A stretch of 16,284 bases of DNA from an archaeon (GTDB taxonomy: Archaea; Iainarchaeota; Iainarchaeia; Iainarchaeales; Iainarchaeaceae): assembly GCA_038046625.1 (NCBI GenBank), contig JBBSVV010000048.1, forward strand, positions 1 to 16,284. The letters run 5' to 3'. Below, one piece after another: positions 659 through 14,827 of this stretch; the stretch's first letter is position 1, and every line of letters begins with the position of its first letter. Both the position numbers and the translations under genes were made by a program. The notes beneath the pieces are model-generated. The model saw only the letters and a list, made by a program, of their open reading frames with translations. It searched no databases and was not told the DNA's origin.

Positions 659-768
659 GCAAAAAAGTGGTTTGGCAAGGTTTAAATAGGTTGGGCGCAG
701 CATTATTTAGACCCGCAAATGGGGCCTTTTCTTCGATTCCTCATTTCAATTTTTTCCGGAATTTTATC

Positions 769-821
769 TTCTCTTTCTTTTTCGCCAACGTTTTTCTTTC
801 TCTTTCGAAGAGAAAGAAAAA
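769..821. repeat. Perfect mirror repeat plus inverted repeat (potential intrastrand triplex / H-DNA motif)
   Basis: 769-782 TTCTCTTTCTTTTT is the exact mirror of 791-804 TTTTTCTTTCTCTT, and 808-821 AAGAGAAAGAAAAA is the exact reverse complement of 791-804. Confidence 0.85.
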
Positions 822-824
822 GGC

Positions 825-845
825 TGAAAGTTAAGTTTTTATTAA
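825..845 (+). promoter_or_regulatory. Putative BRE/TATA promoter of the pyr operon
   Basis: GAAAGTTAAG followed by TTTTTATTAA, about 16-35 nt upstream of the in-frame TTG starts at 861 and 873. Confidence 0.55.
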
Positions 846-6259: not shown

Positions 6260-6969
6260 AGCAAATCATAAAACTACCGAGGAGCATTGTGCCTGCATGT
6301 GACTTCAGCTCATTGAAGGAACTCGAGTCACTCGTGAAGGAAATAGATTCCGTTGAAGGAATCGGCGCTTACAAAGTGGGTTTTGAATTGGGTTTGGTGC
6401 ACGGCCTGCCGAAGGTTGTCGAGACAGCGAGGAAGCACAGCAGCAAGCCGATTATTTACGATCACCAAAAAGCCGGAACCGATGTCCCTTTCATGGGAGA
6501 AAATTTTGCAAAGGTCTGCAAAGGCGCAGGCATTGACGCCGTGATTCTTTTTCCCCAGGCCGGCCCGGAAACGGAGAAAGCCTGGATAAAGGCATGCTTG
6601 AAGGAAGGCCTCGGTGTGATTGTGGGCGGCGAGATGACGCATCCGGGCTATCTTGAGGCGGAGAACGGTTTTCTGATGAACTCGGCTCCGCGGAGAATGT
6701 ATGAAACCGCGATTGCGGAAGGAATCACTGAATTCGTTGTTCCGGGCAACAAGCCGGAAAAAATAATTGAATACCGCAAATTGTTCGAATCAAAAAAGGT
6801 CGATGCTACCCTTTATTCCCCAGGTTTGGTTTCGCAGGGCGGAAGCATTTCCGATTCCGGAAAAGCCGCCGGAGAAAAGTGGCACGCGATTGTAGGAAGG
6901 GCGCTTTACAAGGCGAAGGATAAAAGGAAAGCCGCGCTCGAACTTTGCAGGGAACTCGGCCCAAAATAA
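6256..6969 (+). CDS. pyrF: Orotidine-5'-phosphate decarboxylase (divergent OMPDC/HUMPS-fold)
   Basis: IVPACD, YKVG, D..K...D motif (DHQKAGTD), SPGLVSQGG and IVGRALY. Last gene of the pyr operon. Confidence 0.88.
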   Translation: MKQIIKLPRSIVPACDFSSLKELESLVKEIDSVEGIGAYKVGFELGLVHGLPKVVETARKHSSKPIIYDHQKAGTDVPFMGENFAKVCKGAGIDAVILFPQAGPETEKAWIKACLKEGLGVIVGGEMTHPGYLEAENGFLMNSAPRRMYETAIAEGITEFVVPGNKPEKIIEYRKLFESKKVDATLYSPGLVSQGGSISDSGKAAGEKWHAIVGRALYKAKDKRKAALELCRELGPK

Positions 6970-7062
6970 TATCAAAAGACATTATTTTCAATAAAATTCC
7001 ATGATGCCTTTTGATACCTATCAAAGGACAAATTTTACAAGTATTTTTGTCCTTTTATATAA
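6970..7062. promoter_or_regulatory. Tandem inverted repeats (four related half-sites) overlapping the AMP phosphorylase TATA box
   Basis: 6970-6984 pairs with 7002-7016 (13/15) and 7019-7032 pairs with 7046-7059 (13/14). TTTTATATAA at 7053-7062. Confidence 0.6.
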
Positions 7063-7093
7063 CCTTTAAAAATCGGGACTGCTTATTCTTAAC

Positions 7094-8635: not shown

Positions 8636-9443
8636 AAACATTCGCGAGTTCCGCGCTTTCAAGCACATTGGTTTTCGCTTCAAGCAGCTTTGCACCGACT
8701 TTTGCCATTGCTTTTTTATAGTCCTTTACCCCGAGGCTCGCGCCCGACTCCTTCAGCGCGTTCTGCAGCGCATTCGAGAGGTTCTTGTTCTTGAACCTGA
8801 AGAGGCTCTTGAGGAAAGCCGCGAGCCTTTCGGTTTGTTTCCTTGAAAAGCCGTGCTTTTTGCCGCGGAGCACCATCATTGCGGAGTAAGTAACCGGTTT
8901 TGGAAAAAAGGCTTTCGGGTAGATGCTGTGCATGACCACTTCCTTGCCGAACAGCAAATCCGTCAGCACGGAAAGATGGCCGCGCGAATGAAAGCCCGGT
9001 TCGGAAACTATTTTTTCCACGAACTCGCGCTGGAAAACAACCACGGCCATTTTGAATTCCAGGAAGCAGATTTTCGTCATTATTTCCGAGGAAATGTTGA
9101 ATGGGGGAAGCGAAACTATCTTCGTTATTTTCGGCAATTCGGCATCCAGAAAATCGCCCTCAATCAGCGTGAAGTTTTTGTTTCCCGAAAACCTTTCCCT
9201 GAGGGCTTCGCATAGCAATTGGTCCTTTTCAACGCAAACCACTTTGCAGTACTGCAGAAGCTTTTCCGTGAGAAAGCCCGTGCCTCCCCCTATTTCAAGC
9301 ACGACATCCTTTTGGGTTAGCTCGGCCTCCTCAACCATCCTGAGAATGACGGCTTCGTCTATGATGAAGTTCTGCCCGAGCCTGTGGTTCGGCCTGAACC
9401 TGTGCCGGATCATCTGGTTCTGGAGGTCTGAAAGAAGGCTCAT
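8613..9443 (-). CDS. rsmA: 16S rRNA adenine dimethyltransferase RsmA/KsgA/Dim1
   Basis: LGQNFIID, VLEIGGGTGFLT, VEKD, GDFL, FQREF and FFPKP motifs. Conserved archaeal synteny with DUF655, rpoF and rpl21e. Overlaps the convergent AMP phosphorylase 3' end by 23 bp. Confidence 0.93.
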   Translation of the reverse strand: MSLLSDLQNQMIRHRFRPNHRLGQNFIIDEAVILRMVEEAELTQKDVVLEIGGGTGFLTEKLLQYCKVVCVEKDQLLCEALRERFSGNKNFTLIEGDFLDAELPKITKIVSLPPFNISSEIMTKICFLEFKMAVVVFQREFVEKIVSEPGFHSRGHLSVLTDLLFGKEVVMHSIYPKAFFPKPVTYSAMMVLRGKKHGFSRKQTERLAAFLKSLFRFKNKNLSNALQNALKESGASLGVKDYKKAMAKVGAKLLEAKTNVLESAELANVFRKIFPE

Positions 9444-9463: not shown

Positions 9464-9479
9464 ATTTTTTAAACTTACT
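9464..9479 (-). promoter_or_regulatory. Putative TATA box of a leaderless rsmA transcript
   Basis: Minus strand reads AGTAAG-TTTAAAAAAT, with the TTTAAAAA box about 23-30 nt upstream of ATG 9443. Confidence 0.5.
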
Positions 9480-9800
9480 ATCGAGCCCTAAAGGACAAAG
9501 ATAGTACTCGTACAACGCAAGCCCGCGTTGGGGGGCACACACCTCTGGCAATGCTGTTCTTACTATCGAACGCCCAAAGGCGACCTTGCAGAATCAAAGA
9601 TTCTGCGAGGCCTCGTACCCTTACGGGTACAAGGAGATAGTACTCGCACGCCGCCTGCCCGCGGCGGTGGAGCGCACGCCTCCCTCGTCCCGTCGGGACG
9701 GGGCCTCGTACCCATTGGGTACAAGGTCGGCAGTGCAGTTCTTGCTATCGAGTCCCGAAGGGACGAAGATAGCAGTCGCACCCAACCGCCGAAACGGTTG
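9474..9800. repeat. Tandem mosaic array of three structured units plus nested hairpin cassettes
   Basis: Units CTTRCTATCGA-[hairpins]-AGATAGYASTCGYAC at 9474-9513, 9559-9649 and 9741-9781, joined by homologous hairpin linkers. CCTCGTACCC..GGGTACAAGG is duplicated at 9611-9634 and 9704-9726. Confidence 0.9.
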
Positions 9801-9802
9801 TG

Positions 9803-10384
9803 TCAGAACCTGTGCCGCGGCCTGAACTCGTGCTCCTTTGCGGGGGGCCTCGCGAAGAGATAATACTTTACGTCGTTGCCCTCGAGCTCCTCGACCACGC
9901 GGCCAACAATCGCCCTGATCGGGTTCGGCATCAAATGAACGCGCTTCTCCAGGTCCTCGAAGGATTCGAATGCGCCCTTTTCGCGCTCCGACACAATCTG
10001 GAGCATGTGCTTTTTCCCCAAGCCAGGCAAGAGCTCGAGCTGGTGCCTCTTTATTGTTATGCTCTGCGCGGCATTGTAAAAGTCAAGGTATTTTTGCTTG
10101 TTGTCGGCAACGATTTTTTCAACCGCCTTTTCGAGCTCGGCAAGCGAATTGCTCGTGAGGTCCTTGAACGCAATCCTTCTCTTTATGAAGTCTATTTTCG
10201 GCCTGTTTTCCTTGCCCACGTAAACCTCTTCCAGCGCCTTCAGGTCGGAATCCTTTTTTGGAATCACTTCAAGAAGAGTGAAGTACTCTGTGCCGATGAG
10301 CTGTGCCAGTGGCTCTGTCTTGTAACCCGAGCTCCTGCCTCGCGGCAGATAATCAAGTACCAGTGCTTTTTCTTCCGCTTTCAT
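9803..10384 (-). CDS. DUF655 putative RNA-binding (OB-fold/HhH) protein
   Basis: LVLDYLPRG, AQLIGTEYFTLLE, HQLELLPGLGKK, FESFEDL..RV and KYYLF. GGTGA SD before ATG 10384. Typical position after rpoF. Confidence 0.92.
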   Translation of the reverse strand: MKAEEKALVLDYLPRGRSSGYKTEPLAQLIGTEYFTLLEVIPKKDSDLKALEEVYVGKENRPKIDFIKRRIAFKDLTSNSLAELEKAVEKIVADNKQKYLDFYNAAQSITIKRHQLELLPGLGKKHMLQIVSEREKGAFESFEDLEKRVHLMPNPIRAIVGRVVEELEGNDVKYYLFARPPAKEHEFRPRHRF

Positions 10385-10425
10385 GTGGGTTTTCACCTTG
10401 AAAAAAATTAGTGGCAAGGGGGAAT

Positions 10426-10761
10426 TTACTTTGCGTACTTCGAAGTGGCTGCAACCACTTGCTCGAGCTTTGCGTTGTCGATGCCCATGTCCTTGCCCGA
10501 GATGAGCCTGGCGGCGTTCACGTCTAGCGGCAGGATATCCACCGCCTTGGTTATGAAATCTTCGCTTAAGCCTTCAATTTCCCTGAGTTCCTTGAGGAGC
10601 TTCTCGCCCTTTGCAGGGGTTATTTTCGAAAACTTTTTCGAGTACTCGAATGCCTGCTGCTGCTCGTAATTGAGTTCGCCGTCCTTGCTCCTTTCGGCAA
10701 GAACCTCATTTACCGCGTAAAGCGGGATGTTTTCCCTTGAAATAACCTGTTTTCCGATCAT
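10426..10761 (-). CDS. rpoF: DNA-directed RNA polymerase subunit Rpo4 (F)
   Basis: MIGKQVIS, ELNYEQQQAFEYSKKFSK and KAVDILP motifs. ATGA overlap with rpl21e. Confidence 0.93.
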   Translation of the reverse strand: MIGKQVISRENIPLYAVNEVLAERSKDGELNYEQQQAFEYSKKFSKITPAKGEKLLKELREIEGLSEDFITKAVDILPLDVNAARLISGKDMGIDNAKLEQVVAATSKYAK

Positions 10762-11096
10762 GCTGCCACCTTTGCCCTTTCGTTTTCTTTTTTTTGCTGC
10801 TGCCCCGTGCCCCTTGAAATGGTGAGGTGCGCAGGATGCACAATAAGTTCAACGGGCTTGTTGCCCTTTGAAACAGCCACCATGAAAGCAACTCCCCTTT
10901 TCCCCGTAACTGTTCCTGTAAACCCTTGATAGCGGGTAGGCGGCATTGCCGAGTGCACTGAACTGTCTATCCTTATGTCCACCTTGCTGCCGATAGGGAT
11001 TTCCTGAAGCATCTTATTTACGGTAACATCGGGGCCCTTTTTCTTCAAAAGGTCCCTGGACTTTTTCCTCGGCCCCTTGGCCTTTTTGCTCGGCAT
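10758..11096 (-). CDS. rpl21e: 50S ribosomal protein eL21
   Basis: KGPRKKSRDLLKK, GSKVDIRIDSSVHSAMP..RYQGFTGTV.GKRG and IVHPAHL. Likely start ATG 11096 (MPSKK). Confidence 0.95.
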   Translation of the reverse strand: MPSKKAKGPRKKSRDLLKKKGPDVTVNKMLQEIPIGSKVDIRIDSSVHSAMPPTRYQGFTGTVTGKRGVAFMVAVSKGNKPVELIVHPAHLTISRGTGQQQKKENERAKVAA

Positions 11097-11159
11097 GAAA
11101 ACAGCTACCCAAATCAATTGAGAATTATACTATTCCCCCCTGAAAACATTTAAATACCT

Positions 11160-11340
11160 GACCACAACGGGCTTTAGCCCACTGGGTCTCTTGATATGCC
11201 GTCAACGGGCAAAGTGTTGACAGAGAGAAAAACGGCCGACAATATTCATTTGTCAACACTTTGAAAGAACACCGAGCAAAAACCTCGCCATAAATGGCGA
11301 GGGGTTCTTTTTGGGTTGCTAAGCAGGAAGCGGGGGCAAC
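11160..11340. repeat. Hairpin cluster, possible non-autonomous IS200/IS605-like remnant
   Basis: GGGC-TTTA-GCCC at 11169-11180, a 13-bp inverted repeat at 11210-11222/11251-11263, CCTCGCCA-TAAA-TGGCGAGG at 11283-11302 and GTTGC..GCAAC at 11315-11340. Confidence 0.6.
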
Positions 11341-11375
11341 AGCCTTAAAAAAGGGGAAAGCGTAAAAGAATTGTA

Positions 11376-11813
11376 ATGGAACCCCGGAACAGAAAAAGGC
11401 TCGGCATAGGAATTGCGGCCCTAATAATTATTGTGACAGCGATTTTCATATTGGGAAACAACCCTCTCGGCACGCCAGGCCAGAACACGAACATCGACTG
11501 CGCCGAGGGTAACTGTACAGGCGCAAATCCGCAGGGCGGCATCCAGGAAACCGGGGCAGATGCCAATGCCGGAAACGGAGCCGGGGAAATAATTGAAAAC
11601 CCCCGAGATTCAATAACAGGGGCAAATGACGGCAGCAGCCCTGGAAATGGAAGCAATTCCGGCGCAAATTCAGGCACACATATTGATCCCGCACAAGCCT
11701 CTGATGAATGCCCGTTCGAGTGCTGCGGCGATGAAGGCGGTTACGCGGAGAAGATTTGCCCCCTAGACAAGGTTTGCAAGAGCAACAAATGCGTTGACCA
11801 GGAAGCCAGTTGA
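11376..11813 (+). CDS. Hypothetical membrane-anchored or secreted protein with G/N-rich linker and Cys-rich C-terminal domain
   Basis: Basic N-terminus followed by a hydrophobic helix (LGIGIAALIIIVTAIFILG), a low-complexity linker, then CPFECC..KICP..KVCKSNKC. Confidence 0.8.
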   Translation: MEPRNRKRLGIGIAALIIIVTAIFILGNNPLGTPGQNTNIDCAEGNCTGANPQGGIQETGADANAGNGAGEIIENPRDSITGANDGSSPGNGSNSGANSGTHIDPAQASDECPFECCGDEGGYAEKICPLDKVCKSNKCVDQEAS

Positions 11814-11870
11814 GCCGCGTTTTTCAGGAATCGGAAAAAAGCTTATATTCCCGCGCGGAGAATTCTTTCC

Positions 11871-12371
11871 ATGGAGAAAAAAAATTCAGGAGGAAAGCCC
11901 GGAACCGCAACCTTTGCGGCGGGGTGCTTCTGGGGAGTTGAATCAGTGTTCATGCAAATCCCGGGAGTAAAGGAAACAAGCGCAGGCTACACCGGCGGCC
12001 ACATGGACAAGCCAACCTATGAAGATGTGTGCACTGACGAAACAGGGCATGCGGAAGCCGTACAAATAAAGTTCAATCCGAAAGAGGTTTATTACGAAAA
12101 ATTGCTGGAGGTTTTTTTCAACAATCACAACCCGACGACAATGAACAGGCAGGGCCCTGATGTCGGCACACGGTACAGGAGCGCGATTTTTTACCACGAT
12201 GAGGGGCAGAAAAAGGCGGCAAAGAAATTCATTCAAAAACTTGAAAAGAAAAAAAAGTTTTCAAAGCCGATAGTGACGCAGGTTGTTCCGGCGCAGGAAT
12301 TCTTCAAGGCCGAGGAGTACCACCAGAAGCACTACCGGAAAAAGGGCATCGAACCAACCTGCCACATCTGA
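11871..12371 (+). CDS. msrA: Peptide-methionine (S)-S-oxide reductase
   Basis: FAAGCFWGVE, PTYEDVC...TGHAE, NRQGPDVG..YRSAIF and AEEYHQ motifs. TATA-like CTTATAT at 11842-11848. Confidence 0.98.
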   Translation: MEKKNSGGKPGTATFAAGCFWGVESVFMQIPGVKETSAGYTGGHMDKPTYEDVCTDETGHAEAVQIKFNPKEVYYEKLLEVFFNNHNPTTMNRQGPDVGTRYRSAIFYHDEGQKKAAKKFIQKLEKKKKFSKPIVTQVVPAQEFFKAEEYHQKHYRKKGIEPTCHI

Positions 12372-12458
12372 CTTCAGGCTTTGTAAACAAGACAAAGGGT
12401 TTATATACCTTTTTAAAGCCTTTAAATATAGTCCTTTTTAAATCGGGGGTAATTTGAG

Positions 12459-13037
12459 ATGAAGTACACCATTGTAAACATTGTGGCTTCCGCCAACTTG
12501 AACGCCACAATTGACTTATACAATTTAGCCATAACAATTCCTAACGTAGAGTATGAGCCGGAACAATTCCCCGGCGCAATCCTGAAGCTCAAGGAACCGA
12601 AGGTCTCGATGCTCCTGTTCAAGAACGGGAAAGTAATCTGCTCGGGCGCGAACTCGGAGGCCCAAATACCATTGGCAATTTACAAGGCCTCGAAAATGAT
12701 TCACGAAATCCAGAAGAATGTAAAGGTTCAGAAGAATGCCGAGTACACTGTTGTGAATCTTGTTACTACCGCAAATCTGAATATGACCCTTGACTTGTTC
12801 AAGACCGCAATGGAATCAGACAACGTTGAATACGAGCCTGAACAGTTCCCGGGCGCGATTTTAAGGATACACGACCCGAAGCTTACATTGCTTTTGTTCA
12901 AGAACGGAAAGCTTATTTGCGCCGGGGCAAAGAACGAGACATTGCTCAAGAAGGGCCTGAAGAAGGCGGCGGAAATGATTCGCGCAATAAACAGCCCGGA
13001 AAAAAGCGCGAAGAAAGCAACTGCAAAGGCAAAGTGA
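12459..13037 (+). CDS. tbp: TATA-box-binding protein
   Basis: Two internal repeats, each of the form VN.V..ANL...NVEYEPEQFPGAIL....PK...LLFKNGK.IC.GA. Confidence 0.97.
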   Translation: MKYTIVNIVASANLNATIDLYNLAITIPNVEYEPEQFPGAILKLKEPKVSMLLFKNGKVICSGANSEAQIPLAIYKASKMIHEIQKNVKVQKNAEYTVVNLVTTANLNMTLDLFKTAMESDNVEYEPEQFPGAILRIHDPKLTLLLFKNGKLICAGAKNETLLKKGLKKAAEMIRAINSPEKSAKKATAKAK

Positions 13038-13057
13038 AGCACGCAGATTAAGCAGAC

Positions 13058-13183
13058 GCAGTTCTTGCTATCGAGTCACGAAGGGACGAAGATAGCAGCC
13101 CTCAACGGTTTGACGAAAGAATATTGCCTTTTTTTCTTGCTGTCAAACCGTTGCCGCCGCGGGCTTGCGGCGCGAAACTGTTG
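13058..13183. repeat. Dispersed copy of the hairpin-module family
   Basis: 13058-13098 matches 9735-9775 at 40/41 nt. 12-bp inverted repeat at 13103-13114/13142-13153. CGCCGC-GGGCTT-GCGGCG at 13155-13172 is an inverted copy of the 9513/9649 module. CGAAACTGTTG at 13173-13183. Confidence 0.9.
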
Positions 13184-13200
13184 AAGGAAGGTTTTTAAAC
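13183..13200 (+). promoter_or_regulatory. BRE/TATA promoter of 5S rRNA
   Basis: GAAGGAAGG-TTTTTAAAC ending about 22 nt upstream of the 5S 5' end. Confidence 0.7.
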
Positions 13201-13221
13201 CATGCAATAAGCAATTAGTAT

Positions 13222-13341
13222 TGATTAGCGGTCATAGCGGCGGGGAAACACCTGGTCTCATTCCGAACCCAGAAGTTAAGCCCGTTAGCGATTTGGTCCA
13301 GCCCTGTTCAACGAATGGAGCTTCCAAGACGCTGCTAATCA
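13222..13341 (+). rRNA. rrf: 5S rRNA (stand-alone)
   Basis: Helix I TGATTAGCGG/CTGCTAATCA and the conserved stretch GGTCATAGCGGCGGGGAAACACCTGGTCTCATTCCGAACCCAGAAGTTAAGCCC. About 120 nt. Confidence 0.95.
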
Positions 13342-13342
13342 C

Positions 13343-13364
13343 TTTTTCTATTTTTTTATTTTCT
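13343..13364 (+). terminator. Oligo-T archaeal terminator of 5S rRNA
   Basis: TTTTTCTATTTTTTTATTTTCT immediately after helix I. Confidence 0.7.
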
Positions 13365-13375
13365 ACCATCGATGT

Positions 13376-14617
13376 TCATGCATATTTCATTTTCTGATTC
13401 GTGCTCTTTAATGAATGCAGAACCAGCTGTTTCATGAAAATCGTGAAATGCACGTCATTCCTGCTTTTGGATAGTTTTGTTAGTTCCATATACTGCTGTA
13501 CAAAACCCGCTGGAAATGTCATGAGCGGGAAGCCGTTCAGCATCAGTGTATGGGCAAATAGGGCGCGGGATGTCCTTGAGTTACCATCTATGAACGGATG
13601 TATTCTCTGGAATTCACTATGAAGATATGCCGCAAAATCTACAATTTCGTGCGGCTTCATTTTTTTCTGTATATTTTGTTTATAGTATTCGAATAAATCT
13701 TCGAGTCTTCGTGGCAAATCTTTCCAGTCAGCAATCCGAAATTCTGGATTTCCTTTTATCGCAACATTCTGTATCCTCAGTTCTCCTGCCCCGGCTTCGA
13801 TCCAATTCATTGCCTTTGCATGAAACGCCAGGATTTTCTGAAAGTTGATGGGGGTTTTGCCCTTGATGAGCATATCTAGGGCCTTCTTGTAATCTGTTGT
13901 TTCCTGCATTTCTTGGAAAGTCCTGTTTTTTGGGGGAATATTTTGTTTTATGAGCCTCGCGGTTTCAGACAAGGTCATTGTATTACCTTCTAGCGACAAG
14001 CTGCGGTGGATAAACCTTACTTCATCATCAATGCTCGTCTGTTTTGGGGATTTTTTGAATTTTCCAAATTCGGAATCCAGTTTGAGGTTCAGGTTTTCCT
14101 CATCCGCGCCTTCAAATATATTTTTGTGGTTTATTCGGGCTTCTCCTTTAAGCAATTCGACGACATTCTTTAGGAAATCTGAGTATACAAGTGTTCCGGA
14201 AAATGGTTTCCGGGACTCTATTAGAAGAAAGCCGTGTTTTGAGAGAAAGCTTGAAATTCTTGCGATTGTTTTGCTGTTAAAATGTTCCCCTGTGGCATGT
14301 TTTTTTTCTAGCCCAATCTTTATGAATTCCAAGGTTTTGTCCAAAAACAACTCATTGTAATCAATCGCATTTCTCACGCAGAAATCAAGTATTCGTATAA
14401 GCTTGATTGATTTTTCAGTTTTTTGTAAAAAGTATTTTTTTTCTTCAACCTTAAGAAAGCCCTCTTCTGCAAGCTGTTTGAGCCGCTTATAAAATGCATC
14501 ATATTCATATGGCGTTTTGCCAAGCTTTTTGAGCAATTCCGAGGCGGCCAAGCCTTCATTTAGAAAAACCGAATAAAGCAGATCGTACTTTGAAACCACG
14601 TTGAAATTTATCACCAA
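13376..14617 (-). CDS. Fic-domain protein with N-terminal winged-helix-like region
   Basis: Fic motif HPFIDGNSRTSR, inhibitory-type motif SLSLEGN and AGELRIQNVAI. The N-terminal ASELLKKLG...AFYKRLKQLAEEGFLKVEEKKY resembles a wHTH. Start TTG 14617 or GTG 14614. Confidence 0.9.
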   Translation of the reverse strand: MVINFNVVSKYDLLYSVFLNEGLAASELLKKLGKTPYEYDAFYKRLKQLAEEGFLKVEEKKYFLQKTEKSIKLIRILDFCVRNAIDYNELFLDKTLEFIKIGLEKKHATGEHFNSKTIARISSFLSKHGFLLIESRKPFSGTLVYSDFLKNVVELLKGEARINHKNIFEGADEENLNLKLDSEFGKFKKSPKQTSIDDEVRFIHRSLSLEGNTMTLSETARLIKQNIPPKNRTFQEMQETTDYKKALDMLIKGKTPINFQKILAFHAKAMNWIEAGAGELRIQNVAIKGNPEFRIADWKDLPRRLEDLFEYYKQNIQKKMKPHEIVDFAAYLHSEFQRIHPFIDGNSRTSRALFAHTLMLNGFPLMTFPAGFVQQYMELTKLSKSRNDVHFTIFMKQLVLHSLKSTNQKMKYA

Positions 14618-14626
14618 AACCTATAA

Positions 14627-14683
14627 AAATAGTACTATTTAGTATCAAAATTCACCAAAAAATAGAAATTTACTACTAAATAG
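14627..14683. promoter_or_regulatory. Palindromic operator-like sites upstream of the Fic gene
   Basis: Perfect 14-bp palindrome AAATAGTACTATTT at 14627-14640 and 10-bp inverted repeat CTATTTAGTA (14635-14644) / TACTAAATAG (14674-14683). Confidence 0.55.
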
Positions 14684-14705
14684 CCCTAAAAATGGGTGTT
14701 TGTAA

Positions 14706-14827
14706 ATGCGAGCGAAGCGGGCCATGGCCCTGCGAAGCAGGGGCAATCGCACCCAACCGACGAATCGAACAGCAAGACAAAAGCAGCGATATTTCTTTTG
14801 CTCGATTCGTTGCAGCCGAAACGGTTG
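14706..14827. repeat. Dispersed copy of the hairpin-module family with nested insert
   Basis: TCGCACCCAACCG (14747-14759) and CCGAAACGGTTG (14816-14827) are identical to 9776-9800 but split by a 56-bp hairpin. GCGAAGC mini-hairpins at 14712 and 14732. Confidence 0.85.

Follow-up and report, generated by a model that had tools for sequence, protein, structure and literature searches.

The four structured intergenic loci in the window analysed here (the whole 16,284-nt stretch of contig JBBSVV010000048.1 from an Iainarchaeaceae archaeon, our contig C48) do not form one family; they are stacks in which at least four independent non-coding mobile elements have inserted into each other. For the core element, found in three of these loci, we see about an even chance that it moves as folded single-stranded DNA (ssDNA), joined to its target by an enzyme acting in trans, with duplication of 11–40 bp of the target. 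The genome (G000; 986 kb, 57 contigs, 85% complete) was compared with a close relative (G001; 1.01 Mb compared, 93.4% identity), a family set of 23 genomes (63–95% complete) and an order set of 151 genomes; all genomes are incomplete. Locus I lies between the DUF655 gene and ksgA, locus II upstream of the L21e gene, locus III between the TBP and 5S rRNA genes, and locus IV between a Fic-domain gene and the gene of an unknown membrane protein. The original prediction had described one dispersed family of modular hairpin elements shared by these loci. Its view of them as mobile, modular, intergenic and archaeal held, but several families are involved, locus II is distinct, and the modularity is that of independent elements nested in each other, combined with swapping of their interiors.

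The core element is oriented and ~40–200 nt long, has neither an open reading frame (ORF) nor terminal inverted repeats, and ends at its 3' side in a hairpin (module E) or a pseudoknot (module B). E-oriented copies consist, in order, of a first target copy, a short variable stretch, at least one hairpin, a TCG-N4-CAAC stem, a CGAAA loop, GTTG and a second target copy. Support for the stem comes from pair 12-21, both bases of which differ in 8 of 14 hand-picked variants. Read in its natural orientation, module B forms a terminal hairpin, and its loop is matched by the four bases directly upstream; 14 of 21 copies pair in this way, three of them compensated (GAGC/GCTC). Five of these 21 B-ended copies are free-standing with 23–37 nt duplications, and another four lie antisense inside an A–E host, where they repeat module A. 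B is a second type of 3' end of the core element. An integron attC reading, suggested by the CAAC/GTTG stem, was rejected because B ends can be without GTT and TTG is present in only 3 of 35 targets.

Insertion of the core element was traced through target duplications. The 3' flank of each copy was sought within 300 nt upstream (score of at least 10), with swapped or 35-nt-shifted flanks as controls. Among E ends, duplications were found at 23 of the 72 foreign and at 5 of the 27 own ones (G000), compared with 0.2 each when another copy's flank was used and with 4 (foreign) and 0 (own) after the 35-nt shift. Metagenome loci showed duplications in 22 of 66 cases, partly at the same sites and including three tandem copies. 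The 3' junction is fixed, as 27 of 30 strong duplications begin 0–2 nt past the element's 3' end. After removal of tandem and identical cases, 35 distinct duplications remained, with lengths of 11–40 nt (median 22) that are not fixed; the E and B ends are asymmetric, without inverted repeats. Empty orthologous sites, named in the original prediction as a check on mobility, were also present: 21 ends were flagged as empty in the other genome when G000 and G001 were compared, and four of these sites are clean: each has the target only once, and the duplications measure 40, 34, at least 21 and 13 nt (the remaining flagged sites have diverged or hold a variant element). Independent insertions were also found at the 3' end of the 5S gene in three further genomes (G002, G003 and G006; duplications of 23–25 nt). 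The core element has been active since the split of two genomes that are 93% identical.

All modules were located at the intergenic loci where they had been predicted: A at 9477, 9562, 9744 and 13067; B at 9513 and 9649, and inverted at 13155; C-type hairpins at 9584, 9611, 9683, 9704 and 11283; D at 11210, 13103 and ~14758; and E at 9783/9790 and 14754/14817, with only its 3' part at 13173. Locus I (9477–9800, forward strand) is one host element (A ... E) enlarged by two nested antisense B-ended insertions, each duplicating module A, which explains its three A copies. The first A copy (9477–9505, forward), a stem with a GA/GAA internal loop, is read as the target duplicate of the antisense element at 9513–9561. 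That element (reverse strand, 3' end at 9513) has a 5' hairpin and a 3'-terminal pseudoknot B whose loop GGGC has the partner GCCC, and module A is repeated in the flank past its 3' end. The second A copy (9562–9641, forward) is split by a C doublet (9584–9634), two back-to-back hairpins whose termini are perfect inverted repeats; the doublet entered at CGA^AG and made no duplication. The second antisense element (9649–9743, reverse strand, 3' end at 9649) has one mismatch in its pseudoknot pairing and carries another C doublet (9683–9726) in the loop of its 5' hairpin. It is followed by the third A copy (9744–9773, forward; 9735–9775 is 98% identical to 13058–13098) and by the 3'-terminal module E (9776–9800, forward), with its TCG-N4-CAAC stem, CGAAA-containing loop and GTTG end. 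Insertion into an existing copy would thus duplicate the hairpin A of that copy and generate the tandem mosaic of locus I. In 17 genomes of other genera that have DUF655 and ksgA as neighbours, no modules lie between the two genes. A 33-nt likeness between 9373–9405 (ksgA) and 9801–9833 (DUF655) was considered as a duplication made by locus I and rejected, because the empty-site genomes carry it as well; it is an in-frame FRP motif common to the DUF655 C-terminus and the KsgA N-terminus, ancestral in the family.

Locus III (13058–13183, forward) is a 5'-shortened composite of a linker remnant, module A, a B pseudoknot with a D hairpin (13103–13153) in its linker, and the 3' end of E; module B itself (13155–13172, forward) is here in its natural orientation. 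Locus IV (14708–14827, forward) consists of a GCGAAGC mini-hairpin, a C(GAA)G hairpin and an E whose stem carries a D insert (14758–14813). The matching gene end in G001 has no locus IV element, and synteny also breaks there. In G001, loci I and III are filled by different modules that end at the same 3' junction, and several other shared sites differ in the same manner; locus I shares its outer boundaries and differs in its interior, and locus III likewise differs inside a common 3' junction. Gene conversion between copies would account for such swapped interiors. Two new G001 insertions start inside other modules (one is a 97% match to window 9723–9752), so that mosaics appear to move as 5'-shortened units.

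C and D are separate short palindromic inserts that target the hairpins of other elements. In C doublets the two ends are perfectly inverted, and the site is A^A in 30 of 34 pattern matches; among the other four, three are not doublets and one is the variant at 9683. They interrupt module A, GCGAAGC loops and members of two unrelated repeat families. Three further matches to the loose C pattern lie in the window, at 10396, 10590 and 13955, and the C-type hairpin at 11283 is an internal piece of another family. D is a long stem whose sequence varies while pairing is kept, with a conserved asymmetric centre and boundaries uncertain by 1–2 nt; it occurs in E (also at several G001 sites), in B and in the locus II element. 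Neither C nor D makes a long duplication.

Locus II (11160–11318, reverse strand) is of another kind, and only its D insert (11210–11263) is common to it and the loci of the E/B element. It has the left end CAACCCAA, a right-end hairpin followed by GTCA, and CT on both sides; the site is empty in G001, and the CT forms a 2-nt repeat at the insert junctions. The family, with 35 left-end units in G000 and 25 in G001, is mostly preceded by TNAN 4-mers and shows the 2-nt repeat at empty sites. It has no inverted repeats and bears near-terminal palindromes as in IS200/IS605 elements, and its right-end hairpin often matches the end of an IS200-type TnpA element of G001. That match concerns the right end, and no TnpA element bearing the locus II left end was seen. 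Locus II is likely a palindrome-associated transposable element (PATE) moved by a Y1 transposase.

The modules recur genome-wide and in relatives, beyond the window for which they were first proposed. Motif counts in G000 are 23 for A, 11 for B and 18 for full E, compared with 0–2, 0 and 0 in three triplet shuffles. Its 34 E ends (one further candidate was left out as chance) are mainly intergenic, as predicted: 29 lie outside conserved coding sequence, which makes up 61% of the genome, and 25 outside any ORF of at least 150 codons, such ORFs covering 82%. Eight are near a contig end or gap. Four of the 34 target tRNA genes, compared with 6% of non-coding positions, which is no clear enrichment. 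Searches with the DNA of locus I gave matches in 17 of the 22 other family genomes and in none of 38 others, and a looser E pattern was found in 21 of the 151 order genomes (reversed control, 0). The exact E pattern matched 92 stretches in a species-genome collection; the 80 of 92 listed are all titled archaea, mostly Iainarchaeum/Diapherotrites and one Woesearchaeota. An assembly artefact is excluded because G001 has orthologous elements and copies occur in many independent assemblies. Repeated antisense tRNA-like units of a distant family (L359, 1330–1590; L360, 1500–1590) contain E and A modules, with A near the anticodon region. The modules match no Rfam family: a covariance search of the window returned the 5S rRNA (13224–13340) and one sub-threshold match. 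A hammerhead reading of module A was likewise dropped, as the module lacks the CUGAUGA core and has no Rfam match.

As originally proposed, the loci behave as single-strand folding sequences, and as DNA they fold far better than shuffles (z of −5.6, −5.4, −4.8 and −3.0). Their loops are of DNA type. Counted over the related copies of 111 regions 5' of E, there are 33 C(GNA)G loops versus 8 on the other strand, with all four N used, and GCGNAGC 40 versus 2 (2.5 in shuffles); GNRA was found twice and UUCG not at all, and G.T numbers 25 versus 13 for A.C. As a DNA hairpin, GCGNAGC is described as exceptionally stable and resistant to nucleases, and the hairpin of the related GCGAAAGC as much weaker in its RNA form (PMC13037366). 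These loops argue for a DNA rather than an RNA intermediate. They bear directly on an alternative in which the elements are archaeal retroelements similar to short interspersed nuclear elements (SINEs): read-through transcripts ending at E or B would be inserted by target-primed reverse transcription, with an enzyme from a virus or a missing contig. Such a route would suit the fixed 3' end, 5' shortening, variable duplication and lack of inverted repeats; the G before the first duplicate in 17 of 35 cases would fit 1-nt priming, and there is slight co-orientation with flanking genes (18 ++, 9 −−, 17 mixed). Against it stand the DNA-type loops with almost no RNA tetraloops, the lack of any RVT_1 (reverse transcriptase) match in the 23 incomplete family genomes, and a search of viral contigs in which the E pattern had 0 matches. 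We consider it unlikely.

The window was predicted to encode no mobilising enzyme, and none was found there. In the wider search for enzyme genes flanked by the modules, Y1 TnpA was present in 9 of the 23 family genomes, yet none of the Y1 genes among the matches listed is flanked by A, B or E, and those inspected carry other ends. RAYT reached the cut-off in 0 of 23, and no cognate RAYT flanked by repeats was found. A HUH motif scan of G000 gave nothing convincing; its one XerA-type integrase has no modules beside it. These results speak against, and for the E/B elements the long duplications contradict, the explanation first suggested, that of one family resembling repetitive extragenic palindromic sequences and bacterial interspersed mosaic elements (REP/BIME) moved by a HUH (RAYT or Y1) transposase. 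IS605-type elements make no target duplication (PMC3119063). In spite of the ssDNA folding, the doublets and mosaics, the occurrence of Y1 TnpA and the match of the locus II right-end hairpin to the G001 TnpA element end, we regard that explanation as very improbable. A divergent Y1 group with GC-rich multi-hairpin flanks was also seen in four family genomes (L025, L026, L027 and L033), with no E, A or B match beside it.

Elements carried as non-autonomous passengers of an IS1634-type DDE transposase, the known source of such repeats, would have long variable duplications, and IS1634-like genes occur in 5 of 23 family genomes (three over cut-off). Those inspected bear ordinary inverted ends unrelated to E/B, which has no inverted repeats, and none occurs in G000 or G001, where insertions are recent; we give this the lowest probability of all. 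Capture by host replication or repair would need no dedicated enzyme: nuclease-resistant ssDNA fragments or gaps would be taken up through template switching, duplicating the overlap. In its favour, the elements have no transposase that travels with them, G000 harbours several unrelated structured families side by side, and the many LAGLIDADG nucleases of this genome could supply breaks. A 3' junction precise to 0–2 nt speaks against capture, as does G005 (L379–L433), a 95% complete genome of the same family with 34% GC and presumably similar replication machinery, which is without any of these repeat families. This explanation seems to us quite doubtful, somewhat more so than a SINE-like route.

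We thus return to a core element that would travel as folded ssDNA. An enzyme acting in trans would join its fixed 3' end to a nick in the target, or prime from it there, and integration would leave an 11–40 bp target duplication and a variable 5' end. This reading draws on what was observed: copies are oriented and share a fixed 3' junction, duplications and empty sites occur, elements are nested, interiors differ at shared sites, and loops are of DNA type; from these we infer the ssDNA intermediate and the joining chemistry. The duplications probably explain survival at gene overlaps, tRNA ends and 5S ends. Several points weigh against it. No clear outer duplication is seen at about 70% of E ends, those of loci I, III and IV among them, and some counted duplications are tandem elements or one site in two data sets. 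The loop counts are not independent because the copies are related. For the B pseudoknot there are 3 compensated copies, while 2 of 21 are mismatched and 5 of 21 have no nearby partner (three through a D insert); in a putative E pseudoknot, three pairs are invariant and the fourth fails in 11 of 14. G000 has no Y1, TnpB, reverse transcriptase, Cas1 or IS110 match, and no copy encloses a gene; a search for an autonomous copy among 85 genome and 80 metagenome ends yielded none, the sole long-range pair being a gene duplication. Subtracting G005 from G000 and G001 left 93 proteins, mostly biosynthetic or membrane proteins by eye, and a Pfam scan of 22 of the 93 found no nuclease, polymerase or recombinase (16 had no match). 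Moreover, a fixed 3' end, a variable 5' end and a duplication are also the signature of target-primed reverse transcription.

Other repeats and genes of the same genome were noted in passing. A self-comparison of G000 gave 172 repeated regions in several families, a few of them tRNAs or paralogues. Window 768–828 belongs to a purine/pyrimidine-tract family, common in G000 and often directly 3' of tRNA genes, which we take to resemble intrastrand-triplex repeats. Window 6961–7068 is one member of a family of hairpin doublets arranged back to back; a sister family has a TA duplication at empty sites, the behaviour of IS630-type MITEs (miniature transposable elements with inverted repeats), and one of its units is nested at the matching site in G001. 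A structured repeat of 120–160 nt has four copies in G000 (C3:27148, C7:31949, C10:7732 and C49:1490); two copies lie ahead of LAGLIDADG genes matched by Pfam and a third ahead of a paralogue, and all three run into tRNA genes. Next to locus IV, the Fic-domain gene (13376–14617) has an N-terminal winged helix and is not at the matching place in G001; a 24-bp inverted repeat at 14630–14688, preceding it, may be its operator.

Among known systems, the conglomerates of mobile genetic elements in Haloquadratum are similar in that transposase-free archaeal elements are nested in each other (PMC3119063). In the same source, SMRs (SMR-A) are short palindromic inserts that hit the hairpins of PATEs without duplication, as C and D do with other elements, and PATEs have near-terminal palindromes and no inverted repeats, as does locus II. 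SMRs are 80–110 nt long versus 45–55 nt for C and D, locus II differs by its 2-nt junction repeat, and none of those classes makes 11–40 bp duplications (PMC3119063). REP/BIME/REPIN sequences with RAYT share the intergenic, lineage-restricted and modular palindromes, the doublets and the ssDNA folding, and RAYT genes are flanked by REPs (PMC2817692); here there is no RAYT, no repeat-flanked cognate gene, and the elements are oriented with long duplications. Since the core element makes such duplications and REP/BIME and IS200/IS605 elements do not, those analogues, named at the outset, apply to locus II alone, with C and D as possible additions. IS1634 and IS1549 also make long direct repeats of variable length (8–514 bp), by an unknown route without a mechanistic model (PMC2266710). 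Their DDE transposase and inverted ends set them apart from E/B elements, which have neither. MITEs are comparably short, non-coding and strain-specific in their insertions, but their inverted ends correspond to those of a transposon and their duplication is short and of fixed length; E/B has neither feature. A search of the open literature (subscription papers and supplements being outside its scope) brought up no account of such elements from Iainarchaeota or DPANN, nor of the combination of a fixed end, an 11–40 bp duplication and likely travel as folded ssDNA.

The E/B element fits no class tested, failing a defining test of each prokaryotic small mobile repeat class checked, and yet it has been active, which points to an unknown integration activity. 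SINEs and other retroposons without long terminal repeats are non-autonomous elements with a fixed 3' end, 5' truncation, variable duplication and nesting. E/B shares these features with SINEs, the fixed 3' end with a variable 5' end and the variable duplication included; it differs in that SINEs are eukaryotic and RNA-borne, and here the loops are of DNA type and reverse transcriptase was found in 0 of 23 genomes. It is possible, at somewhat less than an even chance, that E/B represents a new class of transposition and the DNA counterpart of SINEs: nuclease-proof ssDNA with a structured 3' end, integrated with long duplications by a DPANN enzyme, so that genes hit at their ends would be rebuilt and mosaics would travel and overwrite earlier copies. 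Nesting with duplication offers a testable way in which BIME-like mosaics could arise, and the duplications one in which densely packed genomes could tolerate insertions where genes overlap and at the ends of tRNA and 5S genes.

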